42,223 nt of DNA. It comes from a virus (lineage: Duplodnaviria; Caudoviricetes). Each line of letters begins with the position of its first letter. The stretch's first letter is position 1. The notes below the pieces were generated by a model. The model was given only the letters and a program-made list of their open reading frames with translations. It was not told where the DNA came from and made no database searches. A program made the translations under genes and the position numbers. Below are positions 2,047 through 18,232 of the stretch, piece by piece. Where the stretch lies: positions 1 to 42,223 of the IMG/VR virus record IMGVR_UViG_3300009678_000088. The stretch is one strand, 5' to 3'.

Positions 2047-2095
2047 GTTGCAGCATCGAACCAATCCATCCAGATACTATATAAGGAGAGTAAAC

Positions 2096-2431
2096 ATGGA
2101 AAAGAATATCTTGTGCCGCGGTAGTTCAGCTAGCCTCGGTAAAGGTAAAGGGCCAGTCCGTCTCTACCCCGAAGGGACTACGGACTTCTCGGACTTTCGT
2201 AAGGGTGACGTACTCGTTACCCCCATGACTAACCCTGACTTCGTATCCGTTATGAAGATGGCCGAGGCTATCGTTACGGACATCGGCGGTATCACCTGCC
2301 ACGCTGCTATCATAGCGCGCGAGTTCGGCGTTCCTTGTATCGTAGGTACTGGCAATGCAACCAAAGTGCTAAAGATAGGCGACGTTGTAATCGTAAATGC
2401 TACAGATGGGGAGGTTTACACTGTCAACTAA
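2096..2431 (+). CDS. stand-alone PEP-utilising enzyme mobile (swivelling phosphohistidine) domain, PEP-synthase-like
   Basis: AAGGAG SD, ATG 2096; GDVLVTPMTNPDF...AIVTDIGGITCHAAIIAREFGVPCIVGTGNAT matches the PEP synthase/PPDK phospho-His signature; no ATP-grasp or pyruvate-binding domain. Confidence 0.92.
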   Translation: MEKNILCRGSSASLGKGKGPVRLYPEGTTDFSDFRKGDVLVTPMTNPDFVSVMKMAEAIVTDIGGITCHAAIIAREFGVPCIVGTGNATKVLKIGDVVIVNATDGEVYTVN

Positions 2432-2477
2432 TCCCAAGCCAGAAGATAAACCCTTTATCTATGGAGGAAAAATATAT

Positions 2478-3881
2478 ATGGATGGGGAAGCACACGGAAC
2501 ATTCAACAAGGGCGTATTTCAAAACTATCTTAATTCGCTCTCCGGATGGGATAAGCCAGAGCCAAAGATAGCAGAAACTACTTCTCCTAAGTGCACCCAT
2601 TGTAGCGCCTATGCCGTGATGAAGGTAAGCGGCGTCTCCTACTGTGCACACTGTAAGTCAGTGCCCGGCGATACTACAAATACGCAAGACCCCTCGGTAG
2701 AAGTAATACCACCGAATAAACTATACGTAATCCAGTGGGGTAAGAAGGGCGGAGAATACTACGAATACTACTCACATACTTTTAAGAAGGAGTACAAATA
2801 CATAGCTAACGGTTATAACCCTGAACCGCACAAGGTACTTAACCAAGAGCCGAGACTCTTTGGTAAGTGTGTCGTATGTGCTGGCACTTACTGTGAGAAG
2901 TGCGATGGGTGTGCTGCTAACTGCGAATGTCCATTCGTATGCCAAGGGTGTAACGAACAAAAGAGCAAGCGTGTTCGGGCAAAGAACAGTAACAGCTATT
3001 GCAATAGTTGCCTGTGTAAATTCTGCCAGAGGCCGATGGCTGAACACGCGAAGCTCAACCTTCTATGCCCTGTGTGTACTACCAAGCAGTGTATACACGG
3101 CTGTCCTCATAATGACCAGCGGGTAGTAGCGAGCGAAGTATGGCGCATGTCTGATATTAACGTATCAGAGATGGCAGCTAAGTTCTACTTCGAGATGTAC
3201 CGCTCGCTTAAGACACCAGATAAGTACCTTCGCGGGTACGAAGACCATAAGCACACACTAGCACCGATACTGGCTTCCTACCTAGACATGGTAGTTGGTG
3301 GTGAACTAAGACACGCTGGTTCACAGCTACCGGGCGTTGCGGTTAACGACTTCACACTAGCACGTAGGTTCATTAAGAAGTCCGGTGGTATAGGTAGGAA
3401 CGGTGGTTGGGCACACTGGTACAAGTATCGGAAGAAGTACGGGCTGCAAATACTAGAGGAAGCTGCGGCTCTGATGCACTCATATGAATGGCGTGGTAGC
3501 TACGGCGGTGAGTCATGGGGTAGCTGTGCTGACACACTGCTACGCTTCTACCGGGGAGAGATTTCATCCGAGCTTTTCATTGACCTAGCCTTTGCATTGG
3601 AACACAACAACGGCTGCATCTTTGATAAGTTCTTCGGCGGTACTAGAAAGATACGCCGGGTACTGGACGCTAACCTCGCCAGTGACTACCAAAAGCTGGC
3701 CGGATATCTACCTATGAATGAGCGGGAGAACGGATACCAATATCTACTGGAACTTAACGGCATAGATGCAGAGGAGGCTAACAGAATAGCAAAGAATCAA
3801 GCAAACGAGTATAAATATGATTATGAAGATGATGAAGAAAATTACTGCACTTGCTCAGAGTGTAATAGGCGGGAGGACTGA
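2478..3881 (+). CDS. Cys-rich (multi-CxxC) protein with a conserved-looking helical C-terminal domain of unknown function
   Basis: ORF open from 2397; GGAGG SD favours ATG 2478; many CxxC pairs in the N-half; C-half has GGELRH, SYGGESW and FIDLAFALEHNNGCIFDK motifs. Confidence 0.8.
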   Translation: MDGEAHGTFNKGVFQNYLNSLSGWDKPEPKIAETTSPKCTHCSAYAVMKVSGVSYCAHCKSVPGDTTNTQDPSVEVIPPNKLYVIQWGKKGGEYYEYYSHTFKKEYKYIANGYNPEPHKVLNQEPRLFGKCVVCAGTYCEKCDGCAANCECPFVCQGCNEQKSKRVRAKNSNSYCNSCLCKFCQRPMAEHAKLNLLCPVCTTKQCIHGCPHNDQRVVASEVWRMSDINVSEMAAKFYFEMYRSLKTPDKYLRGYEDHKHTLAPILASYLDMVVGGELRHAGSQLPGVAVNDFTLARRFIKKSGGIGRNGGWAHWYKYRKKYGLQILEEAAALMHSYEWRGSYGGESWGSCADTLLRFYRGEISSELFIDLAFALEHNNGCIFDKFFGGTRKIRRVLDANLASDYQKLAGYLPMNERENGYQYLLELNGIDAEEANRIAKNQANEYKYDYEDDEENYCTCSECNRRED

Positions 3882-3882
3882 C

Positions 3883-5385
3883 ATGACATACAACTACTAC
3901 CCTGCCTGTGCTTCATGCGGCGAGCCGCGGATGATTTCAGTAAGGTGTCATACCTGTACCCGTTATGTATGCGACGTCTGCATATGGTCGGGAGACATCT
4001 GCAATACCTGTCATATGGAAGGACTATACGGTAAGACAGAAGAAGAAACAACAAGAGAAACTACAGACGATGGTACTCCTATCATCCCGCTTTGGTGTGG
4101 TAACTGCATGGACATTAGACAGTTCGTTGGTTACACTTCGGAGTCGGGTGAACTATACCCGTGGTGCGTAACCTGCTACAGTACATGGTCACCCCATGAT
4201 ATTACTAAGGAACAGGTGGTTGCTCCGGGCGTAGACATCAACTGGCTACACGCTAACTGGACACAGCTAGCCGGAGAGGGTGATACAGTAGCCACTGTAG
4301 ATACTGCGGAGAAGTTGTCAGACCAAGAACTATACTGCATCAACTGTAAGCGTATAACTAAGCACATAGATACGCACAGTAAGGTAGTTACTGAGGAATG
4401 GGAGTGCGTCTCCTGTAAGCGTAGGCGTTGTGACTACGGTAAGCAGACTAACAACCACTTTAGGGACTGCCACCACTGGCGGGACACGATACAAGTAGGA
4501 CAGTATACAGTCACCGTGTCTGCTAGTTCCGATGGGGTATGGGGCAGGGCACATAAGGCAGATGCACTCGAACCGGACTACGGACTCTACCTAGCCAACA
4601 CATGGGCAGGTAAGGTCGTAGTTACGCCGGACTTCCCTCGTGCTAGTAACCTTATACCCCTGAACCACAGCTACCCTAAGATTATCTTCGATTGGGTAGA
4701 CTACTCGACGCCACGACCAACGGACTTGCTAGCCGTATTCGAGTGGGTTAAGGAACAGATACGTGACGGCGCCCGCATAGACCTCGGCTGCTTTGGTGGA
4801 CACGGTAGAACGGGAACGTTCCTAGCCCTGCTAATCATGGAGTTCGAGGGTCTTAGTCCCGCAGATGCTACTCAAGCTGTGTGGGATAGGCACTGTAAGG
4901 AAGCCATCGAAACGGTAGGACAAGAGAACTTCATCTACACATGGGCAGGGCAAGAGCCACCGGTAAGGACACCGACCAAGGTATGGACAGCATACAAGTC
5001 TAAGGCTAACGGGCAGGCTAATGGTAACAGCGGCAGTTTCAAGTATGCATCACGCGCAGAGAAGCGACAAGCTAAGGCCAGCCGTAAGCGTAACCGCAGA
5101 AACTTCCGTGACTTTGCCGAGGCCATGCGTGACCAAGCAGATAAGCAGAGTATAAAGTGGGAGGTATACCTTAAGACCACGGTAGAAAACAAGTCAACCT
5201 ACTGGCACTGTGAGGCATGCTGGCACTGGATGGGCGAGTCTAGCATTAAGGAGGCAGGCAAGAGTGCAAAGATAAAAAGAGAATGTTCCGAGTGTCAAGA
5301 GACACGAGAGTTTCAGCGCCCGTTCTACCTATACGAGGACACACGGACTAGTGGAAAGGAAAAGCTTAATGACTGCTCCGTATGA
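3883..5385 (+). CDS. Cys-rich protein containing a dual-specificity/tyrosine phosphatase (CX5R) domain
   Basis: GGGAGG SD; WVDYSTP (acid loop), DLGCFGGHGRTGT (C-x5-R P-loop), AIETVGQ; flanking Zn-ribbon CxxC pairs and a basic helix. Confidence 0.85.
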   Translation: MTYNYYPACASCGEPRMISVRCHTCTRYVCDVCIWSGDICNTCHMEGLYGKTEEETTRETTDDGTPIIPLWCGNCMDIRQFVGYTSESGELYPWCVTCYSTWSPHDITKEQVVAPGVDINWLHANWTQLAGEGDTVATVDTAEKLSDQELYCINCKRITKHIDTHSKVVTEEWECVSCKRRRCDYGKQTNNHFRDCHHWRDTIQVGQYTVTVSASSDGVWGRAHKADALEPDYGLYLANTWAGKVVVTPDFPRASNLIPLNHSYPKIIFDWVDYSTPRPTDLLAVFEWVKEQIRDGARIDLGCFGGHGRTGTFLALLIMEFEGLSPADATQAVWDRHCKEAIETVGQENFIYTWAGQEPPVRTPTKVWTAYKSKANGQANGNSGSFKYASRAEKRQAKASRKRNRRNFRDFAEAMRDQADKQSIKWEVYLKTTVENKSTYWHCEACWHWMGESSIKEAGKSAKIKRECSECQETREFQRPFYLYEDTRTSGKEKLNDCSV

Positions 5386-7932: not shown

Positions 7933-10077
7933 ATGAATGAGATAGGACAGACAGTTGTAGCAGAGGGTGGAGTTCCGGGTGAGTACCGAGGGCCGGGGCC
8001 GTACGATATTATGTTCGTCGGTGAGGCACCGGGGCCAGAAGAAGTAAAGGCAGGCCGTCCATTTATTGGGCCGGCAGGCCGTGTCTTCGAGGCCATGCGG
8101 AATGAAGCAGGTATAGACTCATGCTACGTCACTAACATATGCAAGGTATTCCCCGGTAGGGATGCCAAAGGTAAGATTAAGGCGCCCACAAAAGAACAAT
8201 CAACACAGTGGCGTCCATATCTAGAAGCCGAGATTCGAGAAGTCCAGCCGAAAAAGGTAATCCTATTAGGGATTCCAGCATGTAAGCACGTATTCGGTGG
8301 GCAGTGGAAGCTCGGTGATATAGTCGGCACAACACAGGTAGTCGATGGGGTTGAGTACGTAGCTGCGTATCACCCCGCCTCGTTTATCTATAACCAAGGC
8401 ACGGTATACGGCAGCCGCATCGCTAATACACAGCGCCGCATTTTACGTGACGCCTTGGGTATGGAGCCAGTGAGCTACGACTACCTTGTGTTACCGCCGA
8501 ACAGAGAAGAAGGCATGGCCTTTATAGACCTAGAGACTTCGGGCAAGACAGACCCGCGCGTGGCTAAGGTAGAAGAGTGGTCGCTCCTACGGGAACAAGA
8601 CCAACAGGCTACACTGAGCTTCGAGTCGGGGACACTACCGCCACGGTTTGACACCGCCGTATTTCACAATGCAATGTATGATTACCCACTCCTAGTAAGG
8701 GAGAACCGTGAATGGTTATCGGTGGAGGACATACATGACACGATGATTATGGCATACGTGTTAGGCTACGAAGACCTGAGTCTTAAGGGGCTGTCGTCTG
8801 AACTGTTCGGGATACAAGTATTTGACTACAAGAACCGGGACAAATGCGGCCGTGAAACATACAATGCACAGGACGTGTTCTTAACACGCCGGTTGTATGA
8901 TACACTCGGCCCCCGTCTAGTAGACAACGAGGCTTATCAGATAGACCGCTCGATTGTACGTGTCCTTACACGGGCAGAACTATTCGGCGGGTACATGGTA
9001 AACCAGAAGAAACTACAGTCCCTGATTGGGGATAAGCAAGCGGAAAGAGAACGGCTAGAACAGACATTCGCCAAGTGGTATCCGGGTATTAACATGGGTT
9101 CCCCGGCGCAGTTGCTAGAAGTCTTCCCGACTAAGGACACCAACGCTGCTACTCTCAAAGACCTAGGGACACCGGAGGCTATGGTCATACTGGCATGGCG
9201 CTCCGTGAACAAAGACCTAACAACATACCTACTCCCTGCATCAGGACTCGAAAGATTCTCCGGCCTCTACCGGCTAACGATGTCCGCGGGTGATGAGAAA
9301 GACCCATCCGAAAAGGGAGGAGCAGGCACTGGTAGGCTTTCAAGCTACAGTTTTAATATGCAAAATCTAGACCCTGAGCTTTACCAGTGCTTCTCTGCCC
9401 CCACTAACATGATGCTACTGCGCGCCGACTACTCGCAGATTGAACTCCGCTTCATGGCACAGCTTAGTCAAGACGAGCGCATGATTGAAACACTCCGCGC
9501 AAATGGTGACATTCACCAAGATACCGCAGACGCGCTCGGTATACCTAGACAGCTAGCTAAGACGTGGAACTTCAACCGCTGGTATTGGGGCGCCGTCGAG
9601 CCGCAGCACATAGCTAAGTTCTTTGCTTACAAGTATCAGATACCGGAAGACAAGTGCTTAGAGATGTTGCTTAAGCAGGACGAACTCTACCCCGCATGGA
9701 AAGAATACTCGCAGTCACACTGGCAGCACGTACTAGCAACGGGCATGAGCACGACTCCGATGGGGCACTCACGTAAGATACACCTGTTCAAGGAAGCAGA
9801 GGCTAAGAGACAGGCAGGTAACCACCCGCCGCAGTCTATGGCCTCGTACACTACTAAGGCTGCAATGGGTGCGCTTGACGAGGCATATGCGGAAGGCGAG
9901 TTCGAGTTCATTAACCAAGTCCATGACGAGGTACACTACTTCGTATCTAAAGATAAGGTTAAGACAGCTAAGGGTTATGTTAAGGATGTGATGCAAGAAG
10001 TAGGAAACAGATACCTACCCGACGTTGGCATTGATGTTGACGTTAAGGTAGCCAAGTATTGGGAGATGAAAGGATAA
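7933..10077 (+). CDS. polA: family A DNA polymerase with N-terminal family-4-like uracil-DNA glycosylase domain and 3'-5' exonuclease
   Basis: UDG: MFVGEAPGPEE..GRPFIGPAG, YVTNICK, YHPAS; exonuclease: IDLETSG, FHNAMYD, YNAQD; polymerase: TGRLSS, ADYSQIELR, RQLAKTWNF, QVHDEV. Confidence 0.95.
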   Translation: MNEIGQTVVAEGGVPGEYRGPGPYDIMFVGEAPGPEEVKAGRPFIGPAGRVFEAMRNEAGIDSCYVTNICKVFPGRDAKGKIKAPTKEQSTQWRPYLEAEIREVQPKKVILLGIPACKHVFGGQWKLGDIVGTTQVVDGVEYVAAYHPASFIYNQGTVYGSRIANTQRRILRDALGMEPVSYDYLVLPPNREEGMAFIDLETSGKTDPRVAKVEEWSLLREQDQQATLSFESGTLPPRFDTAVFHNAMYDYPLLVRENREWLSVEDIHDTMIMAYVLGYEDLSLKGLSSELFGIQVFDYKNRDKCGRETYNAQDVFLTRRLYDTLGPRLVDNEAYQIDRSIVRVLTRAELFGGYMVNQKKLQSLIGDKQAERERLEQTFAKWYPGINMGSPAQLLEVFPTKDTNAATLKDLGTPEAMVILAWRSVNKDLTTYLLPASGLERFSGLYRLTMSAGDEKDPSEKGGAGTGRLSSYSFNMQNLDPELYQCFSAPTNMMLLRADYSQIELRFMAQLSQDERMIETLRANGDIHQDTADALGIPRQLAKTWNFNRWYWGAVEPQHIAKFFAYKYQIPEDKCLEMLLKQDELYPAWKEYSQSHWQHVLATGMSTTPMGHSRKIHLFKEAEAKRQAGNHPPQSMASYTTKAAMGALDEAYAEGEFEFINQVHDEVHYFVSKDKVKTAKGYVKDVMQEVGNRYLPDVGIDVDVKVAKYWEMKG

Positions 10078-15010: not shown

Positions 15011-15617
15011 GGCCATTGGCATAGACATGGATGGCTGTGTCACTAACTTCGTGCACGGCTTTACTAAGCTAGCTAATAAAGTTAGCCACTCTGCACCTGT
15101 ACTCGGTAGCCACTACGATATGCCAGAGTGGGAGTTCCGCGGATGGTATATTCCAGATGATAATCACCTAGAAAACATAGTCCTTGAGGACACATGGCGT
15201 CTTATTAAAGGCAGTGATAGCTTCTGGAAGTACCTTACGCCGCAGTTCCCACACGACCTAGACGCTCTGGTCGATACGGCACGGACACAGCCACTGGTGT
15301 TCATTACAAGAAGGGACGGAGTTGATGCGTACGGCCAGACGCTAAGCTGGCTACGAAACCATGGAATTAACGAACCACTACTAGTGCGGGTGACGGGTGG
15401 AGAGGAAAAGAGTTCGGTATGTAAAGCACTAGGGATAGAGGTGATGGTCGAAGACAGTCCGAAGTACGGCGCAGAACTCATACGCGCCGGTGTTACACTG
15501 ATGATGCCGGAGTATGACTACAACCGCCAGTTCATCGAGGAAAACTATGGCGCTGCTCGACCAGTACAATCACTTCGGGAAGGAATTCACAAGGCAATAA
15601 TGTATGTCAACCACTAA
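15003..15617 (+). CDS. HAD-superfamily 5'(3')-deoxyribonucleotidase
   Basis: GTG 15003; IGIDMDGCV (DxD), FITRR, K, MVEDSP, YN motifs. Confidence 0.85.
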   Translation: MRKAIGIDMDGCVTNFVHGFTKLANKVSHSAPVLGSHYDMPEWEFRGWYIPDDNHLENIVLEDTWRLIKGSDSFWKYLTPQFPHDLDALVDTARTQPLVFITRRDGVDAYGQTLSWLRNHGINEPLLVRVTGGEEKSSVCKALGIEVMVEDSPKYGAELIRAGVTLMMPEYDYNRQFIEENYGAARPVQSLREGIHKAIMYVNH

Positions 15618-16362
15618 AGTATGTCACTATGATGGCTGTCACCCTATCGAGTCCGCGGTAGCTAACAAGCTCTACTGCTCCGAGTGTGGGTGTAAGCGCA
15701 AGGCAGAGAACAAAGTACGTCGAATAGACCGACCGCTGGTCTACGACGACGGGCTTTGGCAGGCCGAAGAGGATAGGAAACGCCAGCTAGCACAGAAGGT
15801 AGCGGAGAAGAACAAGTGGATTCTGGATAACAAGTCCTTTGCTGTCTTCGACATTGAATCTACTAACCTCGATGCCAACTTTGGCGAGATGCTTGCGGCC
15901 TGTATTCTACCGCTTAACCCCGACGGCGAGGTGAAAATCTACCGTGATACCAAGTCGGACGAGAAGATTGTTCAGGAGGTACGAGATGAACTAGCTAACT
16001 ACGACTACGTAGTTACGTACTACGGTACGGGATTTGACATTCCGTTCTTGCAGACTCGGCTCATTAACTACGACTTGGAACCACTGCGCGAGATTCGCCA
16101 CGTAGACATGTACTACACAGCACGGACAGTGCTAAAGCTGCACTCTAACCGGCTGGCTGTAGTCTCTGAACTGCTGTTCGGCAAGAACAAGAAGACTAAC
16201 ATCTCGTTCGAGCGTTGGAATAGGGCCATGCGTGGCGACGAGGAAGCAATGGACTACATCGTAGAGCACTGTGTCAAGGACGTAGAGGTTCTGCGCGACG
16301 TGTTCTATGAACTGGTGCGCTTCAAGAATCTGTCACAGACACCACTCAGACTAATAGGATAG
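15604..16362 (+). CDS. DEDD/RNase_H_2 (YprB/PolB-exonuclease-like) nuclease with N-terminal Zn ribbon
   Basis: FDIES, TYYGTGFDIPFL, HVDMY, HCVKDV; N-terminal C..C..C..C.C. Confidence 0.85.
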   Translation: MSTTKVCHYDGCHPIESAVANKLYCSECGCKRKAENKVRRIDRPLVYDDGLWQAEEDRKRQLAQKVAEKNKWILDNKSFAVFDIESTNLDANFGEMLAACILPLNPDGEVKIYRDTKSDEKIVQEVRDELANYDYVVTYYGTGFDIPFLQTRLINYDLEPLREIRHVDMYYTARTVLKLHSNRLAVVSELLFGKNKKTNISFERWNRAMRGDEEAMDYIVEHCVKDVEVLRDVFYELVRFKNLSQTPLRLIG

Positions 16363-16377
16363 AAAGGAAGAACTAAC

Positions 16378-16461
16378 ATGGACGGCAATAACATTTGGCT
16401 GGTGCTAATCATCATCTTCATTGTTATTGTGCTGCTCGGCGGCGTAACAATCACCAACTAA
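16378..16461 (+). CDS. 27-aa single-TM micropeptide
   Basis: AAAGGAAG SD; IWLVLIIIFIVIVLLGGV. Confidence 0.55.
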   Translation: MDGNNIWLVLIIIFIVIVLLGGVTITN

Positions 16462-16476
16462 CGACAACTAGTAAGT

Positions 16477-16568
16477 GGGGGCGACGGGTTAGCAGTTAGT
16501 ACGGTGGTTATCGGAGTCCGGTAATAGCCCAAAGCTGAACGTGGGTTCAACTCCCACCGCCCCCACCA
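16477..16568 (+). ncRNA. tRNA/tmRNA-TLD-like RNA, 92 nt, with encoded CCA but non-canonical D and anticodon regions
   Basis: Acceptor stem GGGGGCG/CGCCCCC, discriminator A, CCA; T-arm GTGGG-TTCAACT-CCCAC; the central 57 nt lack a canonical D-stem and a U33 anticodon loop. Confidence 0.75.
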
Positions 16569-16586
16569 AATACGAAAGGATACACG

Positions 16587-16790
16587 GTGCCACTATCACA
16601 GGGAGAAGCAAACCAAGCAGCAACGGTAATACGTAAGCAGGTTGGTGAGCTAATTGATATTGCCGCACTGCTCGCACTCATCCCGCAGGGGAAGGCAGGC
16701 AGTAACTCAGCGGTGCTTGTGCGCTTGCAGAATACAATCAATTTGTTGCAGGGAACGGCAGCAAATATTATGAATGACGTGGAGGATTAA
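16587..16790 (+). CDS. hypothetical helical protein
   Basis: AAAGGA SD, GTG start. Confidence 0.6.
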   Translation: MPLSQGEANQAATVIRKQVGELIDIAALLALIPQGKAGSNSAVLVRLQNTINLLQGTAANIMNDVED

Positions 16791-16791
16791 C

Positions 16792-16887
16792 ATGCAGAAA
16801 TTTCTTACGAAAGAGAACCTAATCGCAGTAACTGCTCTTATTGCTGCGGTTTCCGGTGCTCTACTCGTTTTCCTAGAAGCCGTTTAA
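16792..16887 (+). CDS. 31-aa single-TM micropeptide
   Basis: GGAGG SD; LIAVTALIAAVSGALLVFL. Confidence 0.6.
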   Translation: MQKFLTKENLIAVTALIAAVSGALLVFLEAV

Positions 16888-17054
16888 TGAACGCACGTAG
16901 GTTTTCCTTCGACGTGCCGACGCATGTGCTTAAGTGTCAGCGCAAGAACAAACGACACGTCAAGAACTGTGTTGACCAGCAGGAGAAGCAGTATCTAACG
17001 CGATTTGGGTGGTACGTTAACCCAACTGGAGTAAAAAATGCCAAAGCCACATGA
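16887..17054 (+). CDS. small basic hypothetical protein (55 aa)
   Basis: TAATG coupling; own translation. Confidence 0.45.
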   Translation: MNARRFSFDVPTHVLKCQRKNKRHVKNCVDQQEKQYLTRFGWYVNPTGVKNAKAT

Positions 17055-17244
17055 GCATAAGCAGTGTAACCATACGGTTAAGTTCTGTTCCACATGCAAT
17101 GAGTGCTTTTGTATAAAGTGCAGCGAAGTATGGGGTAAACCAAGGCCATGTTACTTACAGCATACTCCGTATCTACCTTGGCGAAATCCACAATACCCGT
17201 GGATAACCTACACAACAAGCCATACTAACCATGTCACTGTTTAA
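17038..17244 (+). CDS. small Cys/His-rich protein
   Basis: GGAG SD; CNH..FCSTCNECFCIKC. Confidence 0.6.
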   Translation: MPKPHEHKQCNHTVKFCSTCNECFCIKCSEVWGKPRPCYLQHTPYLPWRNPQYPWITYTTSHTNHVTV

Positions 17245-17446
17245 GACTGTATGGTCACGGGTACACGGCTTCTTCGTCGGGCCACGGCTGTACGCTGGCC
17301 GGTATAGGCACGGAGACGGCTGGCATTTCCAGTTAGGTGGCACAGTCTATTGGGATTCGGCGCCGGGATTCCACTTCGATTGCCTCGGCATTGAGATAAG
17401 CATAATCAGGTGGACATTCTTTCTCCACTATCAGGATAATAACTGA
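17231..17446 (+). CDS. hypothetical aromatic-rich protein
   Basis: Overlaps its neighbours in the operon. Confidence 0.45.
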   Translation: MSLFKTVWSRVHGFFVGPRLYAGRYRHGDGWHFQLGGTVYWDSAPGFHFDCLGIEISIIRWTFFLHYQDNN

Positions 17447-17553
17447 TGGCCGGGGATTGGGAAGAAGAGACATGCGATTACTGTATGTGCCTTATGTCCG
17501 AGCACGACTGCACCGGCTGTCTTAATTGTCTCTGCCAAAATCCAGCTTGTTAA
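17446..17553 (+). CDS. 35-aa metallothionein-like Cys-rich peptide
   Basis: TGATG coupling; MAGDWEEETCDYCMCLMSEHDCTGCLNCLCQNPAC (8 Cys). Confidence 0.5.
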   Translation: MAGDWEEETCDYCMCLMSEHDCTGCLNCLCQNPAC

Positions 17554-17614
17554 CAAAACGTTTACAATCTTTTGTGAAATACCCCTTGACAAGCAGCTAC
17601 CGGTGTGGTATAAT
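17547..17614 (+). promoter_or_regulatory. consensus promoter with tandem TTGTNAA-N7-TTNACAA palindromes
   Basis: TTGACA(17586-17591)-17 bp-TATAAT(17609-17614), TGTGG; palindromes at 17547-17567 and 17572-17592. Confidence 0.75.
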
Positions 17615-17627
17615 ATAATAAAGGGCT

Positions 17628-17672
17628 AAAAAAAAAAGTCCCCCCTTCCTTAATTGGTCGGGGGGTTTTTTG
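17628..17672. terminator. bidirectional Rho-independent terminator between the convergent gene blocks
   Basis: A10 tract, CCCCCC...GGGGGG stem, T7 tract. Confidence 0.85.
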
Positions 17673-17689
17673 TTGCCTCTCGTCGCGCG

Positions 17690-18232
17690 TTAGTTAGGGG
17701 TAATTAGGTATCCCCACATGTGCGTTATTGTATTCTCTAGTCCCTCGTTACCACCACTGTTCTGGTAGACACGGCCTTCTATCGTATCACCTATACCTAG
17801 GCTTACGAGGCTGGATGGTGCAGCGCCGGGGATAGTAGTCACGGCTGCATATCGCTCGTCCCTACATATTAGGTCGGTTAGTGCAGTTCCAACCCCATTG
17901 AACACGGAAGTTAGTACCCGTGTTGCTATACCGCTGAACTCTGTCCAGTAAGCCGAAAGTCCTACATGCCAGAGTCCGGCTGTCCTTACGGTTACATAGG
18001 TACTAGTGGCCAGATTCCACATAGAGTCAGTATCAACGACCTTCGAGTCCCAAGGTATAGTCAAGATATTGCCGGAGGTAACTGTTTCCGTGTTATCTAG
18101 CTGCACAAGAAAGGCTGGTCGGCTTATCGTCGTGTCAATATCCTGTAGCCTAATGTTAGGGAACCTTGTTCGGCTTGCGGTAGCCTCTAGGTTATCTACT
18201 GCTTCACTTATCCGCGTACTCTTATCACCCAA
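17690..18232 (-). CDS. tail fibre/spike protein with C1q-like beta domain
   Basis: IPWDSKVVDTDSMW...VTVRTAGLWHV...LGIGDTIEGRVYQ C1q-like pattern; last late gene. Confidence 0.65.
   Translation of the reverse strand: MGDKSTRISEAVDNLEATASRTRFPNIRLQDIDTTISRPAFLVQLDNTETVTSGNILTIPWDSKVVDTDSMWNLATSTYVTVRTAGLWHVGLSAYWTEFSGIATRVLTSVFNGVGTALTDLICRDERYAAVTTIPGAAPSSLVSLGIGDTIEGRVYQNSGGNEGLENTITHMWGYLITPN

Follow-up and report, generated by a model that had tools for sequence, protein, structure and literature searches.

A putative G3-C70 variant of the DS6A-type tmRNA, reduced to its tRNA-like domain, in the genome of an uncultivated tailed phage

Known tmRNAs without an mRNA-like domain

A tmRNA consisting of the tRNA-like domain (TLD) alone has been published from mycobacteriophage DS6A (Mao et al., 2009, as related in passages of PMC4131195 and PMC11915505); its gene (JN698994.1:28478-28560) is entered in the tmRNA Website as tmID 11587. 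According to the relevant passage of PMC4131195, a molecule like that of DS6A is a strong inhibitor of tmRNA, be it chargeable or not, perhaps through titration of SmpB, and a passage of PMC11915505 restates the inhibition for Escherichia coli. The mRNA-like domain has also been lost from certain organellar tmRNAs, such as the mitochondrial mt-tmRNA (RF02544) and the plastid forms of ~65 bp in Mallomonadaceae, which, as outlined in PMC11915505, are the organelle's own tmRNAs; the mitochondrial ones co-occur with an SmpB that is imported, and as a rule they are permuted. In the 2025 tmRNA database, only 9 of 97,179 sequences are in standard order and lack a tag frame (PMC11915505, Table 3), and a search for phage entries in one supplementary file of that paper gave no match. 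Judging by the portion relevant here, PMC9004378 is a survey of phages for full-length and two-piece tmRNAs by ARAGORN. The passages of the open-access literature considered here contain no description of a phage-wide TLD-only family or of a copy with a G3-C70 pair.

The gene described here lies in the genome of an uncultivated virus of the class Caudoviricetes. The window, i.e. the whole stretch of DNA that was analysed, is the entire 42,223-base virus record (CheckV completeness 89%), and the gene occupies positions 16477..16568 of its + strand (92 nt including an encoded CCA). Like the DS6A RNA, this copy is phage-encoded, has the standard order of parts, no tag frame and a stemless D-loop, and its P2 arm is closed by a hairpin and followed by a 3-nt linker with a central A, a T-arm and A73. 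The DS6A RNA differs in having G3·U70, the canonical UCGAC joint, a length of 83 nt and a 3' end in CUA, whereas the window copy has G3-C70, a 9-nt loop that ends in UUAG, a longer arm (hence 92 nt) and an encoded CCA. Judged by its sequence, the window copy is thus a variant of the DS6A-type TLD-only tmRNA and not a plain member, G3·U70 being absent.

The other known forms are more distant. Full-length tmRNA (RF00023) has pseudoknots, a resume codon, a tag frame and G3·U70, all of which are missing in the window copy. The organellar forms differ in that the window gene is an accessory phage gene whose host presumably has a full tmRNA of its own. The permuted tmRNAs of Pseudomonas phage SM1 and Xanthomonas phage Rb1 share with the window gene the 3' acceptor piece and the T-arm, but in them the CCA is followed downstream by the 5' strand and the tag frame, neither of which is present there at the window locus. 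Such permuted two-piece tmRNAs are unannotated in SM1, Rb1, vB_Sm_QDWS359 and CcrPW (L415, L417, L419 and L423).

Structure and identity of the phage gene

The acceptor stem (P1) is formed by a 5' strand GGGGGCG (16477..16483, with G3 at 16479) and a 3' strand CGCCCCC at the start of the segment 16558..16568, which also includes the discriminator A73 (16565) and the CCA (16566-16568); all seven pairs (16477-16483 with 16558-16564) are of the Watson-Crick type, including G3-C70 (C70 at 16562). The 5' strand is followed by a stemless D-loop analogue, ACGGGTTAG (16484..16492), of 9 nt, in which the GG is kept. An arm at 16493..16537 stands in place of helix 2 and the entire mRNA-like domain: it starts from a helix, P2a (CAGTT, 16493-16497, with AGCTG, 16533-16537), continues in an irregular extension and ends in an apical hairpin, TTATCGG-AGT-CCGGTAA (16508..16525), which includes a motif, CCGRTAAT, at 16518-16525. 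The linker AAC (16538..16540), whose middle A is the counterpart of A334 of E. coli tmRNA, leads to a T-arm, GTGGG-TTCAACT-CCCAC (16541..16557), recognized from its sequence and in the Rfam alignment. The preliminary description of this locus had listed the acceptor, A73, CCA, the T-arm and a middle region of 57 nt, and all of these are present.

It had also proposed a fold made up of an open loop, a long irregular helix and the AAC linker. This fold, with CAGTT/AGCTG and the apical hairpin formed, has a predicted energy of -38.3 kcal/mol, within 0.1 kcal/mol of the optimum (-38.4 kcal/mol), and ranks second. In the predicted ensemble, the acceptor (pair probabilities of 0.99-1.0) and the apical hairpin (0.97-1.0) are firm, whereas the T-stem reaches 0.54-0.55 and P2a only 0.32-0.41; the five base pairs of P2a, taken alone, are not significant against shuffles (p=0.22). 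The folding of the arm of this copy has a z-score of -2.5 against shuffles, and when the whole window was shuffled 200 times with its dinucleotides preserved, the combination of acceptor, T-arm and CCA never arose.

In a search of 1.6 kb, the Rfam tmRNA model RF00023 matched exactly 16477-16568 (41.1 bits, E 1.4e-14). The acceptor, the D-loop analogue, the start of helix 2, the linker and the T-arm align to the two ends of the model, and 28 nt stand in place of ~300 model positions. Although the score is below the model cut-off of 47 bits, and nothing in the window reaches an Rfam gathering score, a model trained on other phage copies (R1, see below) found the gene as its sole match in the window (47.2 bits, E 8e-9). 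Together with the recovery of the DS6A RNA by the same model, these matches bear out the proposed layout of a TLD without mRNA-like domain and make it nearly certain, as far as sequence comparison goes, that the gene is a homologue of the TLD, i.e. a tmRNA cut down to that domain.

ARAGORN and Rfam, both recommended as checks in the preliminary description, gave no canonical tRNA with a normal anticodon; ARAGORN called neither a tRNA nor a tmRNA for the window gene (its figure was 89 under relaxed scoring). A full-length tmRNA was rejected for want of pseudoknots, a resume codon, a tag frame and an ARAGORN tmRNA call, and a canonical or class-II tRNA (RF00005) for want of a D-stem, an anticodon arm with U33 in a 7-nt loop and an ARAGORN call. 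A Y RNA or YrlA mimic was discarded as well, the family being absent among the Rfam matches listed to E=10 at 16300-17900. That the locus is not a TLD-only gene at all but a pseudo-tRNA, a piece of a permuted tmRNA or an att scar left by integration at a host ssrA is very improbable and largely refuted: the score does fall short of the Rfam cut-off, and pattern scans do yield many ssrA tails and permuted phage tmRNAs, but here the two acceptor strands follow each other in standard order within 92 nt, no second candidate for the acceptor 5' strand occurs in the region 200-520 nt upstream or in the 160 nt downstream, the permuted model (RF04321) gives only 13.3 bits, and the contig (89% complete) encodes no tyrosine integrase.

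The phage mini-tmRNA family and its genomic setting

TLD-only genes of this kind, which we refer to as mini-tmRNAs, are common in phages; the preliminary description, which implied an unknown kind of RNA, was not borne out on this point. A pattern scan of 60 of the 64 parts of IMG/VR, with either C or T permitted at position 70, returned 120 loci with 100 distinct sequences. Inspection by eye kept 66 of these as TLD-only genes (four with marginal ARAGORN tRNA calls) and dropped 34, comprising seven ordinary tRNAs, 20 ssrA tails or unclear cases, four near-duplicates and three others. To these were added the window copy and two others found in related phages, for a set of 69 members. Narrow pattern and model searches taken together gave 81 distinct phage copies other than the window copy. 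A pattern scan of 12 of the 64 parts of GTDB produced 120 matches, of which 115 proved to be the 3' termini of complete ssrA genes and five were unresolved or broken.

At least six contiguous pairs closing onto the linker can be formed in 43 of the 69 members, with a mean of 6.3 pairs vs 3.3 in shuffles. When 31 copies picked for similar length were aligned by plain MAFFT, two-sided changes were seen at all eight pairs of P2a, and the covariation score was reached by none of 500 shuffles. Paired cells make up 90.5% of this alignment, vs 42-55% in slid controls, and RNAalifold recovers the same acceptor, P2a and T-arm. Evidence comes from the variable pairs alone, since the structure was read from the same sequences and the search pattern itself had prescribed several of the invariant pairs in the acceptor and T-stem. 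Random decay of the central region among homologues, which the preliminary description had named as the mark of a pseudo-tRNA, does not hold for the family, whose central helix covaries; decay of the window copy itself is a separate matter and is possible.

The model R1 was trained on 31 other phage copies, with both the window copy and DS6A left out. It scores the published DS6A RNA at 64.4 bits, vs 47.2 bits for the window copy; scores of ordinary tRNAs in these searches were about 35 bits or less. ARAGORN misses most copies of the family. Among cultivated phages, R1 pointed to unannotated candidate TLD-only genes in Streptomyces phage Alone3 (L418:772-851), Microbacterium phage Franklin22 (L421:740-830) and Pectobacterium phage Bobbio (L424:754-831), all with G3·U70. 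Five other BLAST leads turned out to be permuted or full-length tmRNAs, and BLAST of the window RNA against 50,697 phage records gave 3'-end matches only, none covering 80% of it.

The form and location of the copies vary widely. In one group of phages (L006, L026, L035, L040 and L061; L035 and L040 by their like ORF layout), the mini-tmRNA belongs to a late operon, where it lies between the gene for the head-maturation protease, which ends ~10 nt before it, and that for the major capsid protein. The extremes among exonuclease-related phages are two almost armless copies of 57 and 60 nt (L535, G052:42372-42428, - strand; L267:1097-1156) and, at L532:72-273, a copy of 102 nt that may be accompanied by a second one of 95 nt in tandem. 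L439, L474, L506 and L517 carry near-identical, AT-rich 92-nt elements that combine an acceptor containing G3·U70, a T-loop and CCA with a weak T-stem and, on the 5' side, a long hairpin.

In the window, the + strand carries a replication block with a helicase, a family A polymerase and Cas4-like and DnaQ-like exonucleases, and the - strand a virion block that includes terminase and an amidase. The DnaQ-like (RNase_H_2) exonuclease gene (15604..16362, +), near the end of the replication block, is followed by a hydrophobic 27-aa ORF (16378..16461, +) that ends 15 nt before the RNA gene. This ORF and a hydrophobic 31-aa ORF on the other side (16792-16887, +) both have strong Shine-Dalgarno sequences, and their translations suggest that they probably encode single-pass membrane peptides. 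No sigma-70-like promoter was found just upstream of the RNA gene and no terminator near it. At the convergent junction of the two blocks (17586-17675, +) there is a perfect sigma-70 match (TTGACA-17-TATAAT with an extended TG), after which, within ~20 nt, come a run of A, a strong GC hairpin and a run of T; such a promoter may drive a short RNA or antisense transcription of the virion genes. Elsewhere on the + strand, the family A polymerase (7933-10077) has an N-terminal domain of the uracil-DNA-glycosylase superfamily, and 2048-5385 encodes a stand-alone PEP-utilising mobile-domain protein followed by proteins of 494 aa and 522 aa, the latter with a weak phosphatase-like match. This set recurs in G063 and its two large proteins in G041, G056, G058 and G060; it is possibly a base-modification or phosphotransfer module.

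Sequencing runs that contain at least half of the sampled words of the window come from groundwater, possibly the source, and from freshwater sediment; no RNA dataset is listed as containing the locus, which tells nothing about its expression. Terminase matches in cultivated phages are at about 30% or less, and a single-protein scan of IMG/VR found no close relatives. The closest relatives are the contigs of P0002 and P0050, with a protein identity of 71-74%. In six distinct relatives identified by exonuclease alignment, R1 copies lie 0.2-2.8 kb downstream of the exonuclease gene, and searches of the whole contigs of eight IMG/VR relatives found a mini-tmRNA in five; many of the exonuclease-related phages share just 3-9 of the 32 window proteins. 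The portal-related G041, with 19 of the 32 shared, has a canonical copy of 82 nt. In two other portal-related phages, the complete G056 (21 of 32 shared) and G064 (10 of 32), the region is covered and the mini-tmRNA absent; the gene is thus an accessory module. G060 at first resembled a possible provirus, but it is apparently made up of two phage sequences joined together, and the region is missing from it.

No smpB gene was found in the window genome or in any of 50 mini-bearing records, most of which are fragments. A phage-encoded partner was accordingly rejected, and any SmpB partner would be that of the host.

The G3-C70 pair and possible roles of the RNA

All 81 other distinct copies have G3·U70, including the nine distinct copies from exonuclease-related phages; the window copy has G3-C70, as the preliminary description had pointed out. 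The C is present in run X1, possibly the source run, which spans the stretch with no differences, and, again with no differences, in record 10 of run X3 (16498-16756) and record 5 of run X2 (16557-16713, with C70 near its end). C70 is therefore genuine and no assembly error. The letters of X1-X3 resemble a single strain, so the matching runs, although from two other studies, give no time depth; in the low-share runs X4, X6, X7 and X8 the window gene is not covered. A scan of IMG/VR targeted at G3-C70 returned 14 loci, of which ten are tRNAs called by ARAGORN and at most one (L123) is a doubtful mini-tmRNA.

A G3-C70 swap eliminates alanylation of tRNA-Ala, the exceptions in the passages concerned being mitochondrial enzymes (PMC6451123; PMC9976931). 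The window RNA is therefore predicted to be uncharged and not to be delivered by EF-Tu. An EF-Tu sponge, one of the roles proposed earlier, is consequently unlikely for this copy, since EF-Tu binds aminoacylated RNA.

The SmpB sponge, proposed at the same time, fares best. We give a probability of about 0.45 to the reading that, by analogy with DS6A (PMC4131195; PMC11915505, in the passages cited above), the window RNA would be an uncharged decoy that binds host SmpB and dampens the tmRNA tagging of stalled proteins. The proposal starts from the TLD homology, the missing mRNA-like domain, the family-wide structure, the genuine C70 and the lack of a phage smpB; we infer the steps from transcription and processing to SmpB binding and benefit. 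The RNA would be co-transcribed with the + strand replication block, its 5' end would be matured by RNase P, as is textbook knowledge for such RNAs, and its 3' end would be trimmed back to the encoded CCA. Escaping alanylation owing to G3-C70, it would bind SmpB through the D-loop and the AAC linker and would not be brought to the ribosome by EF-Tu. As a net result, fewer SmpB-tmRNA complexes would form, and fewer phage proteins made from broken mRNAs would be tagged and destroyed.

The main rival to the uncharged decoy, which we regard as unlikely though less so than the other alternatives, is that the window copy is decaying, i.e. that a formerly functional, alanine-accepting mini-tmRNA, now without its determinant for charging and without part of the joint for SmpB, has ceased to serve any use. 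Since G3·U70 is kept in all 81 other copies, charging appears to be selected in the family, and its loss may equal loss of function; the window copy is the lone off-type copy. The SmpB contacts of tmRNA given in the pertinent part of PMC8363625 are G19 and A334. The A equivalent to A334 is present in the linker of all 69 aligned members, including the window copy. The G19 equivalent is displaced: the G before P2a is at position -2 in 53 of 61 members but at -1 in the window copy, which may reflect a one-base deletion, and the D-loop has 9 nt vs a family mode of 12. These changes speak against the decoy as well, as do the predicted occupancy of P2a (~40%) and of the T-stem (~55%) and the dispensability of the gene in the clade, seen in G056 and G064, which also fits decay. 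On the other side, the acceptor, the T-stem and T-loop, the GG, the counterpart of A334 and the CCA are all free of lesions, and the strong apical hairpin is retained. The intact acceptor, T-arm, GG and CCA, and a U-to-C change at position 70 that preserves pairing, favour the decoy, and the same letters in runs of two other studies, though seemingly from one strain, argue against decay.

The long arm of the window copy bears on two further readings. It shares an exact match of 11 nt with L048, a value that none of 2000 shuffles reached, and the 8-mer CCGRTAAT occurs in four of 82 copies, namely the window copy (CCGGUAAU), L048, L427/L529 and L458. In sequence, the 8-mer is identical to the anticodon loop found in certain tRNA-Ile(GAU) genes of phages that have C33; tRNA-Ile(GAU) with C33 instead of U33 was seen at the phage loci L448, L449, L456, L477, L501, L510 and L524. 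A scan for a long-arm subfamily with this motif gave 97 loci, mostly tRNAs or ssrA tails, with L048, the L427 group and L458 as the only mini-tmRNAs, and a tighter scan returned the contig of L048 alone. An anticodon-like loop exposed in the window copy was rejected, the motif being predicted as paired (unpaired probability 0.0-0.25); it is mostly paired in L458 and partly open in L048, and L427 alone has it largely open. In L048 and L427 the shared loop is presented by a stem that is disrupted in the window copy, another point in favour of decay.

It is doubtful that the window copy belongs to a distinct long-arm class of mini-tmRNAs, split off from the alanine-accepting family and marked by a conserved tip motif similar to the anticodon loop of tRNA-Ile/Thr, whose charging was deliberately shed in the window lineage to yield a pure counter-defence decoy for SmpB or SmpB-like nucleases. 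Slightly less probable still is a decoy for RNA-targeting defence in general, which would soak up nucleases with SmpB-like OB folds or tRNA-cutting toxins, possibly via the anticodon-like tip of the arm. Such a role would not need charging, and CoCoNuT systems have SmpB-like domains that are predicted to bind tmRNA (PMC11090510, in the relevant portion). Against the recurrence of the 8-mer in four copies stand its predicted pairing and the register of the surrounding stem, which is one base off from that of a true anticodon loop. The genes adjoining family copies are varied, and no recurring counter-defence partner was found among the 90 proteins scanned. The earlier suggestions of a decoy for anticodon nucleases and of interference with the stringent response or T-box sensing likewise found no support, there being no anticodon arm and the anticodon-like 8-mer being predicted as paired.

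The least probable role is that of a tag-free ribosome rescuer: if a tolerant AlaRS of the host, or some other synthetase, charged it after all, the RNA would move with SmpB into stalled ribosomes and accept the peptide there, and no degradation tag would be added. This would suit the family at large, in which G3·U70 is otherwise invariant; peptidyl transfer to a TLD-only tmRNA has been reported (PMC3895274, in the passage concerned), mitochondrial tmRNAs without a tag frame are described in the cited portion of PMC11915505, and the window copy retains A73. However, apart from the mitochondrial enzymes, the loss of alanylation with G3-C70 stands against it, and most other identities with A73 require an anticodon (PMC9976931).

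The TLD-only form as such was already known from DS6A and the organelles, and the window locus alone is a variant that may be a pseudogene. Narrow searches have nevertheless brought up 81 other phage copies, vs nine standard-order sequences without a tag frame in the 2025 database. The invariance of G3·U70 among them implies that charging matters for the family and points to entry into the ribosome, not to sponging alone. A natural G3-C70 copy is thus a ready-made control for the role of charging: if the window RNA still blocks tagging, sponging suffices, and if it does not, the copy is dead. A long-arm uncharged class, if it is true, would offer a natural separation-of-function test between sponges and tag-free rescuers. 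The question on which a G3-C70 copy bears is why phages carry pieces of tmRNA.
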